NCBI GenBank assembly: GCA_965205975.1
Contig: OZ242195.1
Location: 672,001-736,000, forward strand
DNA: 64,000 bases
Direction: 5' to 3'
DNA from: Candidatus Latescibacterota bacterium
Lineage (GTDB): Bacteria; Latescibacterota; UBA2968
The notes under the pieces are model-generated. The model was not told the origin of the DNA. It searched no databases and saw nothing but the letters and a program-made list of their open reading frames with translations. Shown piece after piece: positions 13,067-24,561 of this stretch. Each line of letters starts with the position of its first letter. Positions within the stretch are counted from its first letter, which is position 1. The position numbers and the translations under genes are program-made.

Positions 13067-13720
13067 TTAAAGAAGTCCCAGATGATTCAACTTCTGCTGA
13101 AGACCATCGGCTCCAGCATAGGTGTGTCCGATTATACCCAATCTCGTCGCCGCTGCCACATGCCCGGCGTTGTCGTCTATGAACAGAGCCTGCTCTGGAG
13201 TTGCTTCCACAGTATCTAAGGCTGTGAAGTAGATGTTGGGATCGGGTTTTGCAAACCCGACCTCTGAGGAGTTGATGATGTAATCGAAATCCTCGGCGAT
13301 GCCCAGTCGCTGAAGGTCTGAGTGTAACCTTGAGGTCGCATTGCTGATAAGGACTAAACGCGCCCTCTTTCGACAAGCCCGCAAGATCTCCAGGACCTCC
13401 AAATCGACTTCCCCTGGCGATGCGGACCAGAGTTCAACCGCGCGCTCCGCGTTGGTGTTAGGGAAGTCCTTGCTGAGCAGGTCCGCAATTCTCCGCCGCC
13501 ACTCATCGTCAGAGATTTGTCCTGTGATTACCAGGGGGAGCAAGTCATCTGAGAATGCAGCCCTGGGGATGGCTCCTTCGGGAAGCTCGGTTGCTCGTTC
13601 CGCCTTACGATGTATTTCAGGGGACCAGATCCGAATTACCCCATCGAGGTCTGTCAGGATTACGTTTGTCATTGAGTTTAGTGTTTTCCTGTGTTTTTTA
13701 CACACGATGCTTGCTGTCAC
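13067..13720 (-). CDS. HAD-superfamily hydrolase (HAD-IA)
   Basis: DLDGVI motif I, ISN motif II, KPDPNIY, FIDDN motif IV; GTGA overlap with upstream gene. Confidence 0.92.
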   Translation of the reverse strand: MTASIVCKKHRKTLNSMTNVILTDLDGVIRIWSPEIHRKAERATELPEGAIPRAAFSDDLLPLVITGQISDDEWRRRIADLLSKDFPNTNAERAVELWSASPGEVDLEVLEILRACRKRARLVLISNATSRLHSDLQRLGIAEDFDYIINSSEVGFAKPDPNIYFTALDTVEATPEQALFIDDNAGHVAAATRLGIIGHTYAGADGLQQKLNHLGLL

Positions 13721-14523
13721 TTATCCTCATTCTTGGTCGCAATGAAGATCATCTCTTTTTCGTGTTCAGAACTCAGGGTCTCGTCTGTCCAATCGCCTTT
13801 GACATCGACATCTCGAAAGCCTGCCAATTCCAGCATCCACATCAGTTCATTTCGATGGTACCAGTGCGTCTGTCCGGTGTGAATTTCCTCTTTTATGAGA
13901 CGGTCGCCTTCGTATAGTTCATATCGCCGTTCTCGGACAGCATATTGCGCCACCGTATCTTCAAAAATCTTGTGGTGGTAAACCAGTAGGCGCTTTCCGT
14001 CTTCAAGCTCCTTGTTGGCGATCTGTTTCCACTCGCCAGGCCATGCGTGAATCTCTTTGGGGCCCCAGTAATAAAAACTATGGGCTGGAGCAACATTAAA
14101 GGCGAGAATTCCACCAGGCTCCAAATGAGCGTGGCATCGGCGGAGCGTTTCCAATGCCGCTCGCCGCCCCATTACACACTGGAAACCACCGCACGGGATG
14201 TAGATGGCATTAAATCGATCGGGGAGATCCAACTGCTGCATCTGCTGCTCGTAGAGCACGGGATCCAGTCCCATCGCGTTCGCATGCAGGCGACATACAG
14301 ATAGCATATCGCCCGAAATGTCCACCCCCTGCACATCAAATCCTTCTTGCAAAAAGGTCAGTAGTAACCGCCCCGCTCCGCATCCCAGTTCCAGGGTCTT
14401 ACTTCCAGCTTTCTCAAGGATGCCTTTGTAGAATGACTTGTCTATGCGGGGATCTGACGTCGATATCGTAGCCCAATGAAGTGCGGAGAGTCCAGTGTAC
14501 AGATCTCGTTCATCGAATTTCAT
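13717..14523 (-). CDS. Class I SAM-dependent methyltransferase
   Basis: LELGCGAGRL, GVDISGDML, HLEPGG. Confidence 0.92.
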   Translation of the reverse strand: MKFDERDLYTGLSALHWATISTSDPRIDKSFYKGILEKAGSKTLELGCGAGRLLLTFLQEGFDVQGVDISGDMLSVCRLHANAMGLDPVLYEQQMQQLDLPDRFNAIYIPCGGFQCVMGRRAALETLRRCHAHLEPGGILAFNVAPAHSFYYWGPKEIHAWPGEWKQIANKELEDGKRLLVYHHKIFEDTVAQYAVRERRYELYEGDRLIKEEIHTGQTHWYHRNELMWMLELAGFRDVDVKGDWTDETLSSEHEKEMIFIATKNEDK

Positions 14524-14577
14524 GAAAATATCCTCATAAAGCGGAGACATTCAGTATCCGGGTTTTGTTTTTCCGCT

Positions 14578-15804
14578 TCACAGAAGATTCCCTTGTGCGC
14601 GGGAGTTGTGGCCTATCACCGTGATCGGCTCGGTCATTCCTATACAGACATTGCCACTCACGAGGTTCCAGTCACTGTGGCCACTCTCGACGATGCCTCG
14701 CGTCTGGCACGGTGTGTCTCCTCCAACCGTCGGAGATTTGTCAACATTATCGGCGCAACGGTTGCCCTGGACAAGAAATCTTTTGGCATTGTGCAGGCGC
14801 AGGGCGGGATAAGCGCCAGGCTTCTTCCATGAATTGCTCCGAAGGATGTTCCCGACGATCACATTTTCCACGCCATCGCTTGCGTTAATGCCCCATTTGC
14901 CATTCTCTGAGCACACATTGTTGCTGATGATGTTGTGGTGATCCTCCCCATGCCCCACGCCGCCGATGCCACTGTGGTCGTTGCCTGTGAAGACACTGTC
15001 GCTACATATAGAGTCGCGCACATGGCCGCAGAAGTACAGACCGTCTCCGCCGTTTCCAATGGCGATGTTGTGTGACCAAATGCTGCGTTCTATACCAGTG
15101 CCGGGGTGGTATCCGTGTCCGCGACAAAAGCGAACCTGACAGTGGGTGACCTGCGCATCCGAGCCGCCCTGCACGCTGATGCCGTCACTCGGCCAGTCGA
15201 TGACCGCTACATTCTGGATGCGTACACCTCTACAGTAGATAGTGTGTACAGCGCTGTAAGTGAAGTCTTGCCACCAGCGCCCTTTGGGATCTCTCGCCCC
15301 ACGTAGCGTCAAATCGCGCAAGCTCACATCGTCTCTACGGACAGCAGTAATGCCCGGGAAGAGGCCGACGATCTGGGCTCCCTCTTTTACCCTCAGGCCC
15401 CTGTTCAGTGGCTCGCTCAAGCGAACGAGGTCGCCCTTTACCGACTTCACCAGCGCGTGGGTCCCGTCCCACCATTGGCGAGGTCGATCGTTCAGCCCGA
15501 CACCATCGTCTGCTACAAAAGGCACTCGTCCGCGCAAGTAGATGTTGCGGGAACCTTTGCGGGCATCTCGAATCAGGAATAGTGCCTTGGGTGCAGCTAT
15601 CGTCAGTTCAGTCGCTGATCCATCGCCGATGAGGCTTATGCCACTTCGGAGGACAATCGACTGACGTAGCCGCCATTTGCCTGCCGGAATCCGAACGCTC
15701 CCACCTCGCTCGCCAAGGGCGTCAATCGCCTCCTGAATCCCCGAGGTAGCCGAATCCTGATCGAGAGATGCCGTGATTACTTCGTTCATCATGGGCTTAC
15801 TCAT
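14578..15804 (-). CDS. Right-handed parallel beta-helix protein (pectate lyase 3-like N-terminus)
   Basis: DSATSGIQEAIDAL...GGSVRIPAGKW; Asn-ladder repeats (GNGGDG, NIISNNVCSEN, NVIVGNIL). Confidence 0.85.
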   Translation of the reverse strand: MSKPMMNEVITASLDQDSATSGIQEAIDALGERGGSVRIPAGKWRLRQSIVLRSGISLIGDGSATELTIAAPKALFLIRDARKGSRNIYLRGRVPFVADDGVGLNDRPRQWWDGTHALVKSVKGDLVRLSEPLNRGLRVKEGAQIVGLFPGITAVRRDDVSLRDLTLRGARDPKGRWWQDFTYSAVHTIYCRGVRIQNVAVIDWPSDGISVQGGSDAQVTHCQVRFCRGHGYHPGTGIERSIWSHNIAIGNGGDGLYFCGHVRDSICSDSVFTGNDHSGIGGVGHGEDHHNIISNNVCSENGKWGINASDGVENVIVGNILRSNSWKKPGAYPALRLHNAKRFLVQGNRCADNVDKSPTVGGDTPCQTRGIVESGHSDWNLVSGNVCIGMTEPITVIGHNSRAQGNLL

Positions 15805-16051
15805 TTCGCGCGGTCGTGTTATGTGTCGTGCAATCCTCTATCCGTCGCCGAATGTGCCAATTGCGATCTCGTAATCGTGCCTGTCGGCGAACCCCACCTT
15901 CGTCTGCGATAGGATGGTGGTAGGCGTAGTCCCGGATCGGCTGTATCCAATTCCAGCCCTTCAGTGGCTGGCAGCATTTTCGCAGGAAGCGACTGACGTC
16001 GTCGAAATCGTCTGCGGGATCGAAAAGTCTTTGAGTTATCATAAGATTCAT
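15797..16051 (-). pseudogene. Truncated GNAT acetyltransferase N-terminus
   Basis: ITQRLFDPADDFDDVSRFL...NWIQPIRDYAYHHP resembles the N-terminus of a GNAT subfamily (NWxxxRWxYxxxHP); the acetyl-CoA binding half is missing. Confidence 0.45.
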
Positions 16052-17076
16052 CCGGCACCAGCGCGTGCCAGAGCGCGATCTTCTGCGTCATAGTCGAAGA
16101 TGGACTGGTCGTATTCCTCCGGTGGGTTCTCGCGTGCCCAGTCAACCGTACGCTTCATGCCCACGTTCAAATCCGTCCTGTGTTCCCAGCCCAATTCGTC
16201 GCGAATCCTGCTGACGTCGTAGATGAGGTCTTGCGCGGGGTTCGCCAGTTGTCCGAGATGGTCGGGCAGTTTGTCCTCGGGGAGGGTTCGGATTTCGCCC
16301 TTCCAGCCCGCAGCTTTTGCAATTGATTCAACCCATTCTCGCTCCGTGCAGTAATTTCCGTCTCCCACATTGTAGATTCGTCCGGCAGCTGAGGCGTTTA
16401 CCGTCGCGGCGACAATGGCCTCGGCGACGTCGTCGATATATCCGCGGATGAAGCGCCAGTGCGCGGTCTCTTCACCCAGCAAAATCACCGACCGACCGTC
16501 GAGCATCTTCTTGAGGTATCCCCAGGGACGGTGGTCGCCGGGACCATAAACGGCCGGCAATCTGAGAATTGTCGTGTCGAACGCCTGTGAAAGTATTCGC
16601 TCTATGGGGATCTTGTCGTAGAAATCCAGGTGCTTGTGCGGGTCGTCGTCAGACCGAAGCGATTCGCCGCGGTAGGGATACAGTCGCATTCGGAGGTCAC
16701 CGTCTTCGCGGATGGGGACTTCCTGAAGCGGACCTGTTTCGTATCCTCTCATGATGTCATAGGCGTGATAGACGTCACCGCTCGAGAGGACGACAACTCT
16801 GGGCGCAACATCCTGCATGGTGTCGGTGAATGTCTGCGCGAATTGCTCGTTCATGGCAATCGTGTCAAGGAGGACATCCACTTTCAGCGATAGGAACTGT
16901 TCACGGAAGTCGTCCAGATCCAGTCGATTGCCGTGAATATGCTCGACGCTGTCCGGAACGAGATCGGCGTTGTGCTTCCCCCGGTGGAAGACGGTGACGG
17001 TATGACCGGCTTCAGCCAGCCTGGCGACAGCATGGGCACCGATAAAGCGCGTGCCACCGATGACGAGTATGTTCAT
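16048..17076 (-). CDS. NAD-dependent epimerase/dehydratase (atypical SDR)
   Basis: MNILVIGGTRFIG, SSGDVY, YDKIPIE, LRLPAVYGPGD. Confidence 0.92.
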   Translation of the reverse strand: MNILVIGGTRFIGAHAVARLAEAGHTVTVFHRGKHNADLVPDSVEHIHGNRLDLDDFREQFLSLKVDVLLDTIAMNEQFAQTFTDTMQDVAPRVVVLSSGDVYHAYDIMRGYETGPLQEVPIREDGDLRMRLYPYRGESLRSDDDPHKHLDFYDKIPIERILSQAFDTTILRLPAVYGPGDHRPWGYLKKMLDGRSVILLGEETAHWRFIRGYIDDVAEAIVAATVNASAAGRIYNVGDGNYCTEREWVESIAKAAGWKGEIRTLPEDKLPDHLGQLANPAQDLIYDVSRIRDELGWEHRTDLNVGMKRTVDWARENPPEEYDQSIFDYDAEDRALARAGAG

Positions 17077-17183
17077 GATATCATTGCCCTATCTAATAGA
17101 CCTGTTTTTTATGTTTTGCTGTTCAAATGGATTTCGAATCTCCACCAATATTGCCTTGTTTCCTCAGCTTTCATAGCACTTAC

Positions 17184-17555
17184 CTAAACCTTCACATTGG
17201 CATAGAAATTGACGATGTTCCCATCCGGGTCACGAAACCAAACAGATCGGCGCCCCCATGATTGGGTTGTAGGCGGTTTAACAATCTCAACATTCATGGC
17301 TTTCAAACGCTCAAAGTCCCGGTCGACGTCTTCTACCTCAAACTCGATAGTATAGCTACCATATCCAGCTCCCTTCAGGCATCCAGGAGCCATCTTCTCC
17401 GTGCGTTCTGAGGAGAAGATTGACAAATCTGCACCCTCCGTTGGAATGATCTCAAATATATTTCCTTCTTCTGGTTCAAGTTTTAGTATTTCTCTGTAGA
17501 AAGCGCACAATCTGTCCACATTCTGCGTTATTATACAAATGCCAGTGAACTGCAT
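17184..17555 (-). CDS. VOC/glyoxalase family protein
   Basis: FYREIL...IEFEVEDVDRDFERL...PTTQSWGRRSVWFRDPDGNIVNF. Confidence 0.92.
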   Translation of the reverse strand: MQFTGICIITQNVDRLCAFYREILKLEPEEGNIFEIIPTEGADLSIFSSERTEKMAPGCLKGAGYGSYTIEFEVEDVDRDFERLKAMNVEIVKPPTTQSWGRRSVWFRDPDGNIVNFYANVKV

Positions 17556-17573
17556 GATGGACCTCCAGAAGTC

Positions 17574-18008
17574 TCAGTGAAATTCTTTTGGACGGCGCAG
17601 GACGCGTCGCCTCCTTCGAGGTGGGAAAGTCACGGTTTGTGTATAAGGGTGCCAGTCGGTTGCGATGTCCCAACTTTCTCGCTGCTGGGGGAAGGTGTAC
17701 AGCACAATGCCGCGATCTTTCGGAGGACGCCACCGTCCCTGACCGAGCAACTGATCTACCACTGCTGCAAATTCTGCCGTCATGGCTTCTCGAAAGATGC
17801 GAGAGTTTCTCACGGATCGGCTGACGCCACCCGGGTATTTTCGCCAGGTCGCAGGATCATCCCGCAATACGCCCTCTCTCTCCAGCCGACGCCAGATCGT
17901 TGATTCCATCTCAGCGGCGTCTTCGGCTGTAAAGGCGCGCACCTTGACGTAGCCTCGGGTGCAGAGCTGCTCAAGGTCTTGTTCGTTCAGCGGTCCGTCA
18001 GTCGTCAT
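17574..18008 (-). pseudogene. Truncated phytanoyl-CoA dioxygenase (PhyH)-family gene
   Basis: LNEQDLEQLCTRGYVKV...VVDQLLG...W...TFP...DWH matches the PhyH N-terminal half. Similarity ends at the HxD motif (WHP, no Asp) and the distal His is absent. Confidence 0.6.
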
Positions 18009-18062
18009 GGAATTGCCTTTCTATATCGGTGAATAGAATGAATTCGCCACTGATGTCAATCA

Positions 18063-18167
18063 TGGCAGAGGGTGTGGGGATCGAACCCATATACGGGATA
18101 TCCCACAGGATACCCGTAGCCCTCGGTTTGGAAGCCTCGGGGCCAGCACCACTGGCTCTCACCCCCT
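18063..18167 (-). tRNA. Non-canonical tRNA, 8/4 allo-tRNA-like, long variable arm, 8-nt anticodon loop CUUCCAAA
   Basis: Minus strand: AGGGGGTG AGA GCCAG TGGTG CTGGC C CCGAGG CTTCCAAA CCGAGG GC TACGGGTATCC TGTG GGATATCCCGTA TA TGGG TTCGATC CCCA CACCCTCT G CCA. All four arms fold; T-loop TTCGA, D-loop GG and encoded CCA are present. Confidence 0.85.
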
Positions 18168-18241
18168 GCTCAATAATACGACGATGTCATAAAATGGAAT
18201 GTTTCGGATGGGATAGGGAGGGATTCATATTCCCTGTCTTT

Positions 18242-19378
18242 CTATGGCGTATCGATCCACCAGTGATACACGTTCGTCAAGTGCTGTTCATACGCATGCG
18301 ACGCCTGCAGTAGCAGCCGATTCCGCTTGTGTGGATTCAGCGATCCGACCACGATGCTGTTCGAATATGCTGCGATTCCCTTCTCGCGCATCCTCAAGTA
18401 GATGCCGTCATCCCAGGCAAAGCCATCTCGTGAAGCATATAGAACAAAGTGACCTTTTTCCTCTTTCTTACCCTGCAAGAATGCACTGCGTCCGTGCATG
18501 AAATAACAGCCGTTTAGCACGGCCATCTGAGGGTTTCGGATCTTCTTTTTAAAGTGTGCGATCCTTGGTTCGGACCAGGTCCGACCATCGTCGTCGCTCA
18601 CCACATAGTCCATCGTGTGCTCAGCCTTGCTGTTGTATATGTACACAATGATGTTTCCGTTATCGCGTATCCCCATGGTTCCATACGATTTCCCAATGGT
18701 GTCGAAGGGAAGCTCGCTGCGCTTCTCGAAGGTCCGGCCGCCGTCTCGGCTCACGTGCAACTCGTACACATGCTCGGGCTTGTTGCCCAGGAAATTGATC
18801 TCGTTGTCGTTCCTGAAGTGGAGCGCGAGTATCTCTCCGTTGTGATACTTTGCATCGTAGAGCCTGCCCCGACTGTCGCACAGTGCAGATGGCTCACGCC
18901 ATGTGTACCCTCCATCCGGACTGCTGATGTATGTCGGCACCTGAAATTGCCTCCAAATGACATTGGCCGTGATATCACATACAAGAAAAAAGAGGACGAT
19001 TTCACCCTTGTCCGTTCGAATTGCCTTCTCGGCGAAGGCGGACAATTTCTTGCTGGTCTTCCCGCTCTGTCCGGTGTCGAACAAGTTTTTCGAATAGGCG
19101 ACCACGTTCCGATCGCTCCAGGTCTCGCCGCTGTTTTCCGATCGCTTGTATTCCATCCAGCCTCTAGCCGAGTGGCCCTTGCCAGACTTCTTCGGGTTGT
19201 GGCTTTCGGCGGAGCAGTTCGGATAGAAGGCGAGGATCTTCCCGTCCTCATACTCCACCAGTGCGTGCCCGAGATTTCCACCTCTTTTTGCCGGGGAGTG
19301 ATCGACGAAGAGAATCCCATCGTTCGGTGGGTCTTTGGGGGTGATCTCATAATCTGCTATGTTTGGGTTCGCGTCCAC
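18242..19378 (-). CDS. BNR/Asp-box sialidase-like beta-propeller protein
   Basis: Five Asp-boxes: SENSGETW, SPDGGYTW, SRDGGRTF, SDDDGRTW, SRDGFAW; GTG start with RBS GGGAGG. Confidence 0.85.
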   Translation of the reverse strand: MDANPNIADYEITPKDPPNDGILFVDHSPAKRGGNLGHALVEYEDGKILAFYPNCSAESHNPKKSGKGHSARGWMEYKRSENSGETWSDRNVVAYSKNLFDTGQSGKTSKKLSAFAEKAIRTDKGEIVLFFLVCDITANVIWRQFQVPTYISSPDGGYTWREPSALCDSRGRLYDAKYHNGEILALHFRNDNEINFLGNKPEHVYELHVSRDGGRTFEKRSELPFDTIGKSYGTMGIRDNGNIIVYIYNSKAEHTMDYVVSDDDGRTWSEPRIAHFKKKIRNPQMAVLNGCYFMHGRSAFLQGKKEEKGHFVLYASRDGFAWDDGIYLRMREKGIAAYSNSIVVGSLNPHKRNRLLLQASHAYEQHLTNVYHWWIDTP

Positions 19379-19398
19379 AAGTGCCTCCCTGGATGAAT

Positions 19399-20847
19399 TT
19401 AAATGCCTTTGTAGCTTCTGGCGGAGTACATTTCAAAGCCTTCGGGGCCGGGGTATCCGTCGAAGAGGTTGCATTCGGGTACATTGCCGGGTGCGCCATT
19501 TTTGAGCCAGTCGATGAAGATGGGGTCGGCATTGCGGTGTTCGAGTTCGGCGAGGCCCGATGCGTGAAGGTCTTGAACGCGGTCGGGATTTTCAGAAGCG
19601 ATATTGTCCAGAGAGCCGTAGGAGGTGAGGATGCTGTCTTCGGGGTTGGGGTGCCATTCGAGATAGCCTTCTTGATCGAAGACGGTAAAGTAGCCGCGTT
19701 GAAGATGTCGCATCGCTTTGCCGCGCGCCACGCCTGATAGGGCGATTTTGCGATTGCCCATGCTGTTTTCACGTGCAGCTTTGAGGATGTCATAACTTTC
19801 GATATTGTCGGGAACAGGCGCGCCTGACAGGTTAGCGATGGTGGCGAAGAAATCTTGTGGTTGAAAGATGGCAGAACTGCGACCTGTATCGCCTTCGGGT
19901 GTTTTGATGAAAAGTGGGATGTGGATTTCTTGTTCGCGAACGGGTGCGCCTTTGCCGAATCTGCCGCGTTCACCGACGTTGGTGCCGTGATCGCCTGCGA
20001 CGAGTATGGCGGTGTTTTTATCCAGGCCTGTGGCTTCAAAGGCTTCGAGGAATCGGCCAAAGCAGTGGTCCATCCAGGTGACTTTGGCTGCATAACTCGC
20101 TTTGATGCGTGCTCTGGCTTCATCGGGTAAGTTGGGATTGCTGCGGGCTTGCGTTCCTCCCTTGAAGGTGCGCGGATCGAGCCGACCGTCATAGCCAGGT
20201 GTTTTGTCGTATTTGAGCATGTATTCGGGGGGTACGTCCCAGGGTTCGTGGGGGTCAAAGCAGTCGATCCAGAGGAAGAAATTTTCCCGGTTTTTATTGT
20301 CGCGGAGAAATTCGGCGACGGTGTTGAAGAGTCTGGCGCAGTTCCAGTCGTCTAAGTTTTCACGGCCTCTGTTGGTGCGAGCATATTGTATGGTTGGTAT
20401 TGGGAGTTCGTCTTCAAGGATGTCAAAGAGCGGGTCTTTTGCCCAGTTGCTGGGCCATTTGGCTTCGTCATTCATCCAGGCGCGGTCAACTTCGGCACCG
20501 CGGATGAAGGTCCAGGTGTGAAAGGGATAATCAAAGGCGTGGCCCCCGTTGACGAGGTGGGGGGTGTCGTGCAGGAGTTGCGTTGCGTAGCCTGCTTCGC
20601 CGAGGACATACGGCAGTGCATTGGTGTTGAAGGGCAGTGGTTTCCAGGCGTGAAAGGGGCTGCCGTATTTGCCAGTCATGACGTCGGTGCGATAGGGGAT
20701 GGTGGGGAAGCTCGCTGCGAAGGCACGGTCGAAACACCAGGATTGTGAGGCCAAGCGGTCGAGGTTGGGTGTTTCGATCCAGTCATTGCCGTTGGCACCG
20801 ATATAGTCGTAGCGCATGGTGTCGATGATTAAGAGAATGATGTTCAT
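19399..20847 (-). CDS. Sulfatase-family protein with Thr at the catalytic position
   Basis: MNIILLIIDTMRYD, TPNLDRLA, FPTIPYRTDVMTG (TxPxR in place of C/SxPxR), FDPHEPW, GDHG. Confidence 0.9.
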   Translation of the reverse strand: MNIILLIIDTMRYDYIGANGNDWIETPNLDRLASQSWCFDRAFAASFPTIPYRTDVMTGKYGSPFHAWKPLPFNTNALPYVLGEAGYATQLLHDTPHLVNGGHAFDYPFHTWTFIRGAEVDRAWMNDEAKWPSNWAKDPLFDILEDELPIPTIQYARTNRGRENLDDWNCARLFNTVAEFLRDNKNRENFFLWIDCFDPHEPWDVPPEYMLKYDKTPGYDGRLDPRTFKGGTQARSNPNLPDEARARIKASYAAKVTWMDHCFGRFLEAFEATGLDKNTAILVAGDHGTNVGERGRFGKGAPVREQEIHIPLFIKTPEGDTGRSSAIFQPQDFFATIANLSGAPVPDNIESYDILKAARENSMGNRKIALSGVARGKAMRHLQRGYFTVFDQEGYLEWHPNPEDSILTSYGSLDNIASENPDRVQDLHASGLAELEHRNADPIFIDWLKNGAPGNVPECNLFDGYPGPEGFEMYSARSYKGI

Positions 20848-20904
20848 TGTAAACCTCTGGGGGTGAATAGATGAATCAGGGGTGATATTGTAACACAATA
20901 CTTT

Positions 20905-22143
20905 TCATGGTTCTTTGTCTTCGATACTAACAATAGATGGAATCATCCGGGCAGATGTTCCGAGAATGAGGGTTAGTACTCCCGCTGCTAAGAACCACGG
21001 CTGCGGGCCAAAAATATCGGTTACGGGACCTATCACGATGAGACCAAGCATAGTTGTAAATTGCACGGAACTATGGAGAGCACCAAATACGCGGCCTTGT
21101 AGATGGGGATCGACATTGGCCTGAAGGAGTGCGCGGAGAGGCGCGTTAATTAGCGAGCTACCGACACCGCTTAAAGCTATGCCCGTGATGGCTAAAGCAA
21201 AGCGGGTATGAGGGGCGATACCTACGAGTATTGTTCCAATGCCATACACAATCCAGCCGAAGATCGTCGTCATGATTCGGCGACGGAATCCACCCCAGGC
21301 CCCGACCAGAAGACCTCCCAGGACAATGCCCACTCCCCAGGCAGAATTAAACCAACCAAGTTCGGTAGCACCTCCATTGAAGTGATCTGTTATCAAGAGG
21401 GGCGAGATGGTCATCTTCGTGTTCCCAAATATGTTTAATACGGCAGCAATTAAGATTAAGTTCCGAAGACCAGTCCATCTCCACAAATAACGAAATCCTC
21501 CCAGCATATCAGCCCAGATTCCAACCTCCTGGCTTTGCTTTTCCTCCATCCTTTTTGGTTGTGGAATCATGATGAAGATGAGGGGGCCGATAGCCAGCGT
21601 CGCCGTCAAAACATCGATGGCCAATATGAGATGTATCTCGAACACAGCCAACGCCAGTGCTCCAAGGGGGGGACCTCCCATACTGAGTACTCCATGCAGG
21701 GTTTGATTCGTCCCCTGAATCCTGGCCAGATGTTTTTCGGGTACCATCAAAGGCGTGGAAGTTATCATTGCCAGGCCCTGGAATGCACGGCCTATACTCG
21801 CCAGGAAGTTTACTGCGTAGATATGCCAGATCTCGATAATTTCCATCCAGAAAAGACCAGCAAGACCTGCCATGGCTATTGCAACAAGCGTATCCGAGAC
21901 GAGCATTACAATTCGGCGGTTCCATCTATCATTCAGTGCGCCAATGATGGGAGCCAGGAAGACTTCTGGCAGATAGGCGACAAGGACTGAGGTCGCGAGA
22001 ATGGTCGCAGATCCTGTCTTTTCCGTAAGCCACCACACCAGGGCAAACTGTGCAACTTGGGTTCCAAGAGACGACAGCGTTTGTCCGGTCCAGATGGTAA
22101 AGAAGCCGCCAGCCCATGATCCGTCTCTATTTAGATGAATCAA
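20905..22143 (-). CDS. MFS transporter (MefA/DHA3-like)
   Basis: About 12 TM segments; IWTGQTLSSLG, QFALVWWLT, GALNDRWNRR motif A, QGRVFG. Confidence 0.92.
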   Translation of the reverse strand: MIHLNRDGSWAGGFFTIWTGQTLSSLGTQVAQFALVWWLTEKTGSATILATSVLVAYLPEVFLAPIIGALNDRWNRRIVMLVSDTLVAIAMAGLAGLFWMEIIEIWHIYAVNFLASIGRAFQGLAMITSTPLMVPEKHLARIQGTNQTLHGVLSMGGPPLGALALAVFEIHLILAIDVLTATLAIGPLIFIMIPQPKRMEEKQSQEVGIWADMLGGFRYLWRWTGLRNLILIAAVLNIFGNTKMTISPLLITDHFNGGATELGWFNSAWGVGIVLGGLLVGAWGGFRRRIMTTIFGWIVYGIGTILVGIAPHTRFALAITGIALSGVGSSLINAPLRALLQANVDPHLQGRVFGALHSSVQFTTMLGLIVIGPVTDIFGPQPWFLAAGVLTLILGTSARMIPSIVSIEDKEP

Positions 22144-22728
22144 TCATCTCTCCTTTTTGTCTGAATCGGCAAGAAAGAATGTTCCCCTCTTTTTGAACTG
22201 AAAACTCTCATCGGGTACGACGAACGCCAGTTTATCACACAAAAAAGAGCCAGACGGAACTGAATTTTGGAGCCGTACACAAAGCTCAAGGCTCTCGTCT
22301 ATGGAGATGAACTCAGCAATGGTCATGTGCGGAGCTATGTTGCGCCTGTGATACGCTTCGCCGGAAAATGCCGATGTACTGTGGAGGATCTGCTTTAAAT
22401 TATCGATAGGCTCTCGTGGCCTTATCGGATACGAGACACCAGGATGCCTCGTTGAGGCATGCGGCTTGTCGTAATGAAGCGTGAATGGCTGGACATCAGT
22501 AAGGACGTTGTTGATTTCATCGATAAGATCAGGCGTCATTTTCCGGCTCAAGGGATCTGACAAAGAGATGTGCGTCGGACAGGAGGTAGCTGAGCGGGGA
22601 TCATACTTTGCCCGCAAGAGATCAATCTCCTGAGATACCTCTGGAGGGGGCATGATAAGGATGAGGCCAAAACAGTAGTCGCGTTGCCAATCTTCCCACT
22701 TCGATGTGTCTTTTACGTATGAAATCAT
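22144..22728 (-). CDS. 2H phosphoesterase (2'-5' RNA ligase family)
   Basis: LRAKYDP and two H-x-S/T motifs (THISL, PHMTIA). Confidence 0.88.
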   Translation of the reverse strand: MISYVKDTSKWEDWQRDYCFGLILIMPPPEVSQEIDLLRAKYDPRSATSCPTHISLSDPLSRKMTPDLIDEINNVLTDVQPFTLHYDKPHASTRHPGVSYPIRPREPIDNLKQILHSTSAFSGEAYHRRNIAPHMTIAEFISIDESLELCVRLQNSVPSGSFLCDKLAFVVPDESFQFKKRGTFFLADSDKKER

Positions 22729-22754
22729 GAGGAACTCTCACGGGGTGATAGCAT

Positions 22755-22954
22755 AGACGTGTTAGCCGATCATGGCGCTTATTTGCGCCGCTGATCAGCA
22801 ATATACTCACGTAGCTTCTCGATCGAGGGAGAATCCACATCCCGCAGCGGTGCACCAGCCGGGTGTTTGTGGAAATTTACCTTTTCGTCCAGTTGGGCTT
22901 CAGCTAGGAAACATGCCGCTTCAGTGTTCTGTAGCGGCATGACGGCTAACGTCT
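22755..22954. repeat. About 200-bp segment bounded by imperfect inverted repeats, containing a 53-codon ORF
   Basis: Left AGACGTGTTAGCCGATCATGGCGCT vs reverse complement of right AGACGTTAGCCGTCATGCCGCT; internal hairpin 22912-22941; minus-strand ORF 22779-22940. Confidence 0.45.
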
Positions 22955-23040
22955 TCGACTTAAGAAAAAAATACCTGGCTTCGGTTTATACCCCATTTTT
23001 CGATTTACAGCAAGTATTCGTTCATTATTGGCATTATAAG
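22946..23040 (-). pseudogene. C-terminal remnant of a GNAT acetyltransferase
   Basis: YNANNERILAVNRKMGYKP matches the GNAT motif B end (N-x-x-x-N...N-x-K-x-G-Y/F); no start or N-terminal half. Confidence 0.55.
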
Positions 23041-23588
23041 CTGTAGATCCATTTGTCCCGATGTAAGAGAAATACAGACCGCTCGGGCAACATGCGGTCC
23101 TTAAATTCGCCTCTACCCGGCCCGGGCGGTACGCGCTCAACTTCCTCGAAACCCAGCCGACGGAGAAGACGGACAGACCGTTTGTTTGCTACAACGCATC
23201 TGGCTTCAATTTCGCCGAGGTCCAAATCTTCAAAACCCACCTGCAAGATGCTCCGGACAGCTTCTGACGCAAAGCCCTGACCCCAATAAACGGGCGACAA
23301 TTCGTAGCCTATGTCACCCTGTCGGCTTTCAATGCTTTCTGTGCGTATTCCGCAATTACCGAGTAATATTCCATTTGAGCGGTCCGTGATGGCCAGCTGG
23401 AATTTGCATCTCGGATTTTCTTTAGACCATGCAATGCATTTATCTACAAAGCGGACGCACTCCTCTCTGGTGTAGGCGGGCCGGTAGTAGTATTCCAGAT
23501 ACTTGGGGTCTCTCCTGTACTCGGCGATGGCATCCACGTCTTGTTTGGTGAACTCTCTCAGAAGCAGGCGTTCAGTCAGTTTTTCCAT
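23034..23588 (-). CDS. GNAT N-acetyltransferase, RimJ/RimL-like
   Basis: TERLLLREF, IGYELSPVYWGQGFASEA, NKRSVRLLRRLGF. Confidence 0.92.
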   Translation of the reverse strand: MEKLTERLLLREFTKQDVDAIAEYRRDPKYLEYYYRPAYTREECVRFVDKCIAWSKENPRCKFQLAITDRSNGILLGNCGIRTESIESRQGDIGYELSPVYWGQGFASEAVRSILQVGFEDLDLGEIEARCVVANKRSVRLLRRLGFEEVERVPPGPGRGEFKDRMLPERSVFLLHRDKWIYSL

Positions 23589-23607
23589 ATAGAAAGACCG
23601 TTTTGAA

Positions 23608-24561
23608 TTACGTTTGAAGCCTTTGAAAAGCCTTAAGAGTTGATGGATCAGTGACTATTTCCCTTGCGGCTTCAATAGTCAACCATTTGGCAGCATAAAA
23701 TTCCTGTAGATCAATGTTGAAATTGCTGCCATCTGTAAGAAGTAAATACCAGATGTCATAATGAGACTGGCAGGGTTGCACGGGATTTTCTATTGGTGTA
23801 ATGGTCAACAAAAACGGTTGTGGTTCAGATTTAAAAAAGTTCCATACTCCCAATTCTTCACCTATCTCACGGTTCAAAGCTGCCAAAAGCGTCTCGTCTT
23901 TATCTATATGACCACCAGGAGAAAGCCAAAGACCAGACTTTTTATGGTGGATGACAAATACCTTTTTGCTCTGGGTATCATAGGGCAGAAAATAGACACA
24001 AAAATGGGTCTCCGGATTTTCATCTCGCGTTGGTTTTCCTTCTTTCACTCTTTGTTTATAGAGAGTATAGGTTTCCCCATTGTCACATATATCACGGTCG
24101 ATAACTTTTGCAATTGATTCTTGTGTTTTCATATTGAAGTTTCTGCTCTTATGATACCTGAATACACGCTTGCCGATACGCACTTTGTTACGCTCAAGAA
24201 ATTTGTAGCCTGCCTGTTTCAGCGTATAGGACTTGTATTTGAACTTGCTACGGAATTGTGGCGGTCGCTTGTTGTCTCTGGCAAAGAATCTCTTATAGCC
24301 AAAGTCTATGCGCTCAATCACATTTTGCAATGCCTGAGACGGTAGCAGACGCCAGTGGGCAAAGCGCGGCGTGTCCTTCAGCTTCTTGAGGTGATTGATC
24401 AGTGTGAACTTACTCGGATACTTGCCAAATCGCTGGTAGTATCGCTTATGTAGTGCGATGAAGTGATTATACACTTCGGCAAAGTCGTTTATCTCATGGT
24501 GGAGATACCGATTGCGGTCACACGTTGAATACAACTTGAATTTGTAGGTCAGGTAGTCCAT
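23608..24561 (-). CDS. In-frame fusion of TnpB N-terminal region (about 141 aa) and a Nudix hydrolase
   Basis: Residues 1-141: TYKFKLY...VYNHFIALHKRYY...LPSQALQNVIERIDFGYKRFF...RPPQFRSKFKYKSYTLKQAGYK (IS605 OrfB/TnpB). From M144 (24132): complete Nudix box GHIDKDETLLAALNREIGEELG. Confidence 0.85.
   Translation of the reverse strand: MDYLTYKFKLYSTCDRNRYLHHEINDFAEVYNHFIALHKRYYQRFGKYPSKFTLINHLKKLKDTPRFAHWRLLPSQALQNVIERIDFGYKRFFARDNKRPPQFRSKFKYKSYTLKQAGYKFLERNKVRIGKRVFRYHKSRNFNMKTQESIAKVIDRDICDNGETYTLYKQRVKEGKPTRDENPETHFCVYFLPYDTQSKKVFVIHHKKSGLWLSPGGHIDKDETLLAALNREIGEELGVWNFFKSEPQPFLLTITPIENPVQPCQSHYDIWYLLLTDGSNFNIDLQEFYAAKWLTIEAAREIVTDPSTLKAFQRLQT

Follow-up and report, generated by a model that had tools for sequence, protein, structure and literature searches.

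A tRNA-like gene with a conserved eight-nucleotide anticodon loop in marine Latescibacterota, possibly a stress-induced nuclease decoy

The 64,000-nt stretch of Latescibacterota DNA analysed here (the window) encodes, on its minus strand, a tRNA-shaped RNA whose 8-nt anticodon loop is genuine and old. In the reading that we prefer, with a probability of roughly 0.45, this gene would make a stress-induced, likely alanylated, non-decoding tRNA mimic, that is, a nuclease decoy beside the RNA-repair proteins Pnkp-Hen1. What is new here is the biology of the loop together with a first clue to its regulation; the allo-tRNA chassis on which the gene is built is already known.

Structure of the tRNA-like gene

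The original prediction had described two CCGAGG stem strands closing the loop CUUCCAAA on the minus strand at 18140-18121 (loop 18134-18127), on a tRNA of 8/4 architecture. The arm is there exactly as described, inside a 105-nt full cloverleaf with an encoded CCA (18167-18063, minus strand), and the fold divides the 12-bp acceptor branch 8/4, without a bulge. The parts of the gene are as follows.

18063-18167, minus strand: tRNA-like gene on the 8/4 allo-tRNA chassis, a 'type A' member of its family (fold, covariation)
18160-18167, minus strand: 5' strand of the acceptor stem (A1, G2, G3), partner 18074-18067, with the G3·U70 wobble (pair probabilities 0.89-1.0)
18142-18156, minus strand: tRNA-Sec-like D arm, 5-6 bp with a GGU loop (matches the D arm of the 'major' 8/4 allo-tRNAs of Mukai et al.)
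18120-18141, minus strand: anticodon arm, 3 bp followed by tandem G·A/A·G and 2 bp (sequence, fold)
18127-18134, minus strand: 8-nt loop; placed from the 3' stem strand, U33 is 18132, CCA 18131-18129, A37 18128 and A38 18127, with two variable 5' bases (contigs, alignment, fold)
18092-18118, minus strand: long variable arm, 11 bp with one bulge (fold, covariation)
18075-18089, minus strand: T arm with a 4-bp stem and a canonical 7-nt loop (fold)
18063-18074, minus strand: 3' strand of the acceptor, discriminator G73 (18066) and CCA (18065-18063) (sequence)
18180-18205, minus strand: predicted promoter-like motif of ECF type, GAAAC-N17-CGTC, whose end lies 12 nt upstream of A1 (pattern search)

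In the predicted fold the acceptor has 8 bp, beginning with A1-U72, G2-C71 and G3·U70. A split of 8/4 is favoured over 9/3 by the first T-stem pair, which covaries among the 51 distinct family sequences (A-U 29, G-C 11, U-A 8, C-G 2, G-U 1). The whole gene has a minimum free energy of -54 kcal/mol (z -3.09), and none of 200 shuffles was as stable. The anticodon arm by itself is no more stable than its shuffles (z 0.17) and its pairs reach a probability of only about 0.55 within the whole molecule; its stem gains one further C-G pair (18141/18120). Compared with a fully paired 6-bp anticodon stem and a 7-nt loop holding a triplet anticodon, the gene departs by its 8-nt loop and by two stem mismatches. 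The structure of the long-V-arm subtype to which the gene belongs is backed by covariation, with two-sided changes in 13 of 35 pairs (0 of 500 shuffles) and the compensatory changes located in the D, anticodon and V arms.

ARAGORN found nothing at the window gene, and its Rfam match, to tRNA-Sec, reaches 34.6 bits, under the gathering threshold of 47. This class of tRNA-like genes thus escapes both ARAGORN and the Rfam cut-offs, with three copies in the host genome alone. A conserved G-2/Y-1 leader was considered as a longer acceptor and dismissed, since it is also present in three of the four host tRNA-Ser genes.

Relation to allo-tRNAs and tRNA-Sec

The 8/4 allo-tRNAs were described by Mukai et al. 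in 2017 (PMC5389517); G73 or U73 is their discriminator criterion, and the window gene has G (18066). With the 'major' allo-tRNAs of that study it shares the 8-bp acceptor and 4-bp T stem, the Sec-like D arm, the long V arm and G73, and its acceptor and D-arm pattern agrees nearly letter for letter with the 'major' rows of the supplement, save that A3 is changed to G3 (PMC5389517). Diverse triplets at the anticodon position and polycistrons are likewise common to the allo-tRNAs and the present family, and toxin-antitoxin neighbours, known from the allo-tRNAs (PMC5389517), occur beside several paralogs. Unlike the 'major' allo-tRNAs, which have A3-U70 and 7-nt loops, the family has G3·U70 throughout and loops of 3-12 nt; it also differs from the allo-tRNAs of that study in its marine Latescibacterota host and in an ECF-type motif held in common with hen1-pnkp. 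Text matches in the supplement tables (figures apart) gave no row for the UGG codon, and neither TCCAAA, CCCTCTGCCA nor AGGGGGTGA (PMC5389517). On E. coli ribosomes, allo-tRNAs with G3:U70 bring Ala, and also Ser when G73 is present (PMC5389517).

A likeness to tRNA-Sec (RF01852) and to selC* tRNA-Cys is seen in the D arm, the long V arm and the weak Rfam match, and one family member (L051) even has a Sec loop. We rejected both identities. A tRNA-Sec would have UCA in a 7-nt loop, a branch of 13 bp or an 8/4 branch with bulge 51a, and U73, whereas the window gene lacks UCA, has a 12-bp branch without bulge and carries G73; its score stays below threshold, and a true tRNA-Sec (70.1 bits) is found elsewhere in the host along with SelA. 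A selC* tRNA-Cys needs U73 and a GCA or UCA anticodon, and is excluded by G73. In the literature on allo-tRNAs, irregular Latescibacterota tRNAs, natural 8-nt loops, tRNA-like decoy arrays and ECF-hen1-pnkp (subscription papers aside) we found no description of the family or its regulation; PMC7609411 was among the papers drawn on.

Conservation of the eight-nucleotide loop

Contigs from four of four sequencing runs, belonging to four studies, span 18127-18134 with no other letter and no gap, a count that leaves aside the four best-matching runs (X1-X4) as a possible source. The stretch occurs in runs labelled sponge, marine or coral metagenome, or bearing a code as label. Within the genus, the arm was found 16 times in 13 of 21 genomes, with CTTCCAAA in all 16. 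Half of these copies (8/16) are the same as that of the window, and the other eight carry one extra G ahead of the loop, a form for which folding predicts 9 nt in the loop (P 0.91). Damage is seen in four copies of the 16: two have a T loop interrupted by a 26-nt insertion, another is truncated and the last has lost its 5' end; one additional genus genome holds a remnant only, and the subtype's arm is absent from 8 of the 21. The alternative raised earlier, that the extra C is an assembly error and the gene an opal-reading tRNA with UCA, is ruled out by the CC seen in the contigs of all four runs and in all 16 genus copies.

Diverged members were sought with a pattern on the two gene ends (8 metagenome loci) and with a covariance model, yielding five of the same subtype that are 55-80% identical to the window copy. 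An 8-nt loop is possible in all five: AUUCCAAA at L053, where the stem is fully paired, and at L054; CAUCCAAA at L055a and L069; and CCUCCAAG at L055b, where a possible C-G closure would shrink the loop to 6. With the window copy included, an 8-nt loop with UCCAAR is seen in six of six lineages of the subtype. The tandem G·A, which the original prediction had put at the centre of the arm, proved to be kept only in the genus copies. Its position is occupied by A-U/A-U/G·U in L053, by G·A/A·A in L054 and L055a, by C·U in L055b and by A·G in L069, and we therefore do not regard it as a defining feature.

Invariant columns make up 5 of 8 positions in the loop versus 13 of 64 elsewhere in the core (Fisher p 0.02, the subtype having been assigned partly by eye, so that the test is not fully independent). 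Placed from the 3' stem strand, the invariant loop bases are U33, C34-C35-A36 and A37, followed by a purine, and this conserved part corresponds to the loop of the host tRNA-Trp with one variable base added on the 5' side. The loop had been described as the tRNA-Sec loop plus one C. With U-CCA-A-R conserved on the 3' strand, it is better read as a tRNA-Trp-like loop, probably stacked on the 3' stem strand and enlarged on the 5' side, as in SufJ.

In SufJ the extra base lies 5' of the anticodon, A-site binding is normal and decoding is in the zero frame (PMC4238358). The window gene resembles it in its loop length of 8 nt and in carrying the added base on the 5' side of an anticodon with a normal 3' stack (PMC4238358). 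SufJ and sufD, however, arose in the laboratory by one-base mutation of canonical 7/5 tRNAs, whereas the window gene occurs naturally, is conserved and encodes a non-canonical 8/4 RNA with a predicted amino acid that mismatches its anticodon. A natural 8-nt-loop triplet reader exists in yeast mitochondria, tRNA-Thr(UAG), and there too amino-acid identity is uncoupled from the anticodon (PMC3113583). The yeast tRNA is essential and gives a codon family a new meaning (PMC3113583), while here tRNA-Trp(CCA) is retained and the element is dispensable.

A family with a frozen acceptor and variable loops

The acceptor/T arm recurs twice more in the host genome (G000), in an unannotated two-copy array at C1:5229416-5229615 (= L009:6417-6614, minus strand). 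The loops of these two copies, 4 nt and 12 nt, cannot decode. The array locus is orthologous in most genus genomes, with 1-3 copies. More widely, the family is present in 24 of 131 class genomes (21 of 30 in family f1, two of two in genus g10) and in 23 of 149 genomes of a phylum sample. Its copies often form arrays of 2-3, with 1-3 non-canonical copies per locus.

We compared 51 distinct family sequences, a set collected by a pattern that missed the copies with T-loop insertions and L069. Their predicted anticodon-arm loops range from 3 to 12 nt, and only one of the 51 has 7 nt, as judged by an automatic fold that includes a few misfolds (e.g. L054). G3·U70 is present in 49 of the 51, where the pattern had imposed U70 and G73 and not G3. 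Because the acceptor is frozen while the loops vary from 3 to 12 nt, we conclude that the family as a whole is not decoding. Toxin-antitoxin genes neighbour some paralogs, namely HigA (L036), BrnA (L137), MntA-HepT (L081) and PIN (L044); none was seen beside the window copy.

Some individual genes depart from the common pattern. A family member at L086:1681-1815 (minus strand, G024) has about 60 nt, including a hairpin, inside its anticodon loop. Another, in a three-copy array (L051:1501-1595, minus strand), has the Sec-type CUUCAAA in its loop, with a G·G mismatch at the closing position, and is possibly an opal-reading allo-tRNA. Other 8/4 tRNA-like genes, at L075:126-221 (plus strand) and L139:1490-1585 (minus strand, G054), have a different acceptor, no encoded CCA and loops of 7 and 9 nt, and resemble the 'tRNA2' chassis of Mukai. 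A dispersed 26-nt hairpin mini-element has hit family members at the same T-loop position in three genomes (G007, G012, G020; L025:1147-1172, L026, L131), and five related copies of it are found in G000.

An upstream motif in common with RNA-repair genes

The motif GAAAC-N17-YGTC, searched as a relaxed pattern, lies 9-15 nt before A1 in 28 of 41 distinct upstream regions of first copies. One genus supplies 26 of these 28, at two loci whose spacers are unrelated, and L050 and L053 are independent. Among the 13 unmatched regions, those of L052 and L055 differ by a single mismatch and that of L069 reads GAAC (L055 and L069 by eye). Both family loci of the host have the motif 12-13 nt upstream, as opposed to none of its 49 ARAGORN tRNA/tmRNA genes; a search for a sigma-70 promoter found none. 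Across the genome, intergenic sites no more than 300 nt from a gene number 20 with a spacer of 17 versus 2-10 with spacers of 13-16 and 18-21 (Poisson 1e-6), which suggests that about 15 of the spacer-17 sites are real, about a quarter of the hits being expected by chance.

By Pfam, the genes behind the motif include hen1-pnkp, tilS-ftsH, proS-glnS, an RNB nuclease, two RidA, a PcfJ-like gene and GNATs, and also the envelope genes SppA, HlyD and MacB. The exact motif precedes hen1 in 8 of 22 relatives and is absent in the other 14, and other spacers gave no match. ECF promoters are known to have AAC and GTC separated by 16-17 nt (PMC6767563), and we infer that an ECF sigma factor uses the motif as a promoter, which would be switched on by translation or RNA damage. 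Since the regulon includes envelope genes, the stress may not be RNA damage. Candidate loci of the regulon are L145-L164, and a near match to the motif lies upstream of an ECF gene at L162:2043-2642. An RNA contig of run X15 was discarded as evidence of expression (it starts inside the motif, at a depth of 5.9 versus 2.6 next door).

Pnkp-Hen1 counters ribotoxins by repairing RNA (bioRxiv 10.64898/2025.12.29.696909). When 61 genomes were scored for the two, the family and hen1 occurred together in 20, hen1 alone in 3, the family alone in 5 and neither in 33, with the caveat that kin are not independent. The ten family-f1 genomes outside the genus had both (3) or neither (7), giving a Fisher p of 0.008 under the same caveat. 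In repair of this kind the mended junction is methylated. No RtcB was found in G000.

In Anabaena, translational stress induces an otherwise silent tRNA operon along with rtcB and hen1-pnkp; the tRNAs it encodes undergo cleavage and have been proposed to be sponges for toxin RNases (PMC8421152). The present family is like this L-array (trn operon, PMC8421152) and like rsr-yrlBA-rtcBA (PMC7790460), where extra tRNAs or tRNA-like RNAs are regulated with RNA-repair genes and a sponge role is proposed. The tRNAs of the L-array are canonical, charged, translating and controlled by direct repeats (PMC8421152). The family RNAs, unlike these, are non-canonical, have an ECF-type motif and Pnkp-Hen1 repair, and come in 1-3 copies per locus and not in a long array.

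Decoy, decoder or relic

The original prediction had left three roles for the gene: reading UGGA as four bases, reading GGA or UGG ambiguously, or acting outside translation, for example as a nuclease decoy. The last is now the best supported, and a dedicated reading of UGGA found no support. The host genome measures 5.56 Mb (98% complete), and its canonical tRNA set is full, with tRNA-Trp(CCA), tRNA-Gly(UCC) and the true tRNA-Sec among the members. In-frame TGG-A is not depleted, accounting in 1,732 long genes for 3,819 sites or 0.245 of TGG codons versus a background of 0.240. The proposed scan for genes broken by +1 shifts at TGGA gave none among three paralog-supported breaks (671 candidate junctions) and none among six candidates of a stricter scan, both of low power. 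The PhyH-like gene downstream (17574-18008, minus strand), considered as a frameshift target, has been broken by a deletion and not by a frameshift (144 codons, compared with about 270 in relatives). That the gene is a natural quadruplet tRNA with anticodon UCCA, restoring genes broken by +1 insertions at UGGA, is in our view very improbable: the four anticodon bases and A37 are invariant in six lineages and the 8-nt loop is real, but half of the genus copies have the extra G, three of six lineages have A or C at position 33 when the loop is read as a quadruplet (L055a, L055b and L069; the window copy, L053 and L054 have U), and the host's genes give the null results above. The Gly register (UCC reading GGA) also requires U33 and fails in the same three lineages. 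Incidental +1 slippage at UGG-N by the window gene may still occur.

If the gene is a decoy, an ECF sigma factor would transcribe the tRNA-like RNAs together with repair genes under stress. RNase P and AlaRS (through G3·U70), and perhaps SerRS (through the long V arm and G73), would accept the RNA, so that it would be processed and probably alanylated as tRNAs are. The open loops would then absorb anticodon nucleases, with the window copy as a mimic of tRNA-Trp whose conserved U-CCA-A could be the bait for an enzyme recognising tRNA-Trp, and cut copies might be repaired or simply spent. We favour this reading because loops range from 3 to 12 nt while G3·U70 is kept, because the motif is common to the family and hen1-pnkp and the two co-occur, and because of the Anabaena precedent and the toxin-antitoxin neighbours of paralogs. 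Against it, the subtype keeps a ribosome-friendly U33, A37, purine 38 and G-C closing pair, which fit decoding equally well; the motif is lacking in 13 of 41 upstream regions of the family and 14 of 22 of hen1; the window copy has no toxin-antitoxin neighbour; and within the genus the subtype's arm is missing from 8 of 21 genomes and damaged in 4 of its 16 copies. No nuclease matching the putative decoy was identified.

The same loop could serve a back-up UGG reader under stress, a SufJ-like tRNA charged with Ala or Ser that, whenever tRNA-Trp is uncharged or has been cut, would decode UGG in the zero frame with low +1 slippage at UGG-N; its enlarged loop would also shield it from any nuclease that depends on a loop of 7 nt. 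U-CCA-A-R in a canonical 3' stack in all six lineages speaks for such a reader, as do the zero-frame decoding of SufJ with its 5' extra base (PMC4238358), the triplet reading of yeast mitochondrial tRNA-Thr with an 8-nt loop (PMC3113583), the function of 8/4 allo-tRNAs on E. coli ribosomes (PMC5389517) and the engineered quadruplet tRNAs, which also have a G-C closing pair, stem mismatches, U33.5 and A37 (PMC11231383). We nevertheless place it on the unlikely side, with a predicted 9-nt loop in 8 of 16 genus copies, co-regulated paralogs unable to decode, a tRNA-Trp and two TrpRS genes already present in the host, and the finding that missense suppression by allo-tRNAs was lethal to E. coli (PMC5389517). 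That toxicity enters a different account, in which the gene is what remains of a mobile allo-tRNA/toxin-antitoxin cassette, a relic now domesticated and in decay, its loops resized to defuse a toxic missense tRNA and its copies drifting. The patchy presence in 13 of 21 genus genomes, the shuffled gene neighbours, the copies broken by the 26-nt insertion, truncation or 5' deletion, and the many inactive allo-tRNAs at toxin-antitoxin or transposon loci or in polycistrons (PMC5389517) would all suit decay. Drift alone agrees poorly with compensatory changes in three arms, a G·U wobble kept in 49 of 51 sequences, a spaced promoter motif kept despite unrelated spacers, a loop whose conservation exceeds that of the remaining core and an array locus orthologous in most genus genomes, and we consider a relic quite improbable. 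A non-ribosomal Ala or Ser donor, for an enzyme like aminoacyl-phosphatidylglycerol synthase or for RqcH-type tailing, would explain a conserved G3·U70 acceptor with a free loop, and the host does encode an LPG_synthase_C domain protein and RqcH/NFACT. No such gene stands beside any family member examined or among the motif-bearing genes, no FemAB was found in the host and the conserved U-CCA-A loop would be left unexplained; we hold this to be a very slight chance.

Returning to the decoy reading, it can be extended to a lineage-wide scheme in which Ala-charged tRNA mimics with hypervariable, 5'-expanded loops, in short arrays and under an ECF sigma in common with Pnkp-Hen1, form an inducible decoy layer against anticodon nucleases, the window member being a tRNA-Trp mimic and at once a SufJ-like UGG reader with +1 shifts at UGG-N. 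Taken whole, this scheme is doubtful. The role of allo-tRNAs has been open since 2017, and the motif common to the family, Pnkp-Hen1 and translation genes, together with the co-occurrence, gives a first regulatory handle on it. The question of decoy versus decoder becomes testable in E. coli, and a naturally evolved 8-nt-loop tRNA scaffold whose synthetase identity lies away from the anticodon would be useful for engineering quadruplet codes.

Genomic setting

The window gene lies within a run of co-oriented small genes (13067-24561, minus strand; L010-L027) coding for GNATs, methyltransferases, a glyoxalase, an epimerase, an MFS protein, a PhyH-like protein, a 2H phosphoesterase and NUDIX proteins. 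Their order is shuffled between relatives in a cassette-like manner, with no repeat family or integrase nearby, and other samples have a different insert at the 18218-18239 junction. An ORF at 23608-24561 (minus strand) joins a transposase-OrfB-like start (by eye) to a NUDIX domain, where relatives have NUDIX alone (L019). An integron was rejected, with no convincing repeats in 5000-30000 and none of six tyrosine-recombinase hits near the window. Two patterns had no match in IMG/VR, and a phage or plasmid origin was likewise rejected, with only short T-arm matches among 50,697 phage and 72,556 plasmid records.

The second TrpRS gene of the host lies at C1:2470710-2471453 (minus strand; = L087:4711-5454), with relatives at L089-L116. 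In 11 of 21 genus genomes it has lost the KMSKS tail and the anticodon-binding domain by an in-frame deletion, with three breakpoints, and in 10 it is full length. A link between the short form and the tRNA-like subtype was dropped, as the short form occurs in 8 of 13 arm-bearing and 3 of 8 other genus genomes, showing no association. Short TrpRS-like frames adjoin trpS in G050, G051 and G052. Upstream of the second TrpRS gene we observed a terminator-like hairpin and a leader peptide that contains three Trp codons, an arrangement resembling a Trp-sensing attenuator.
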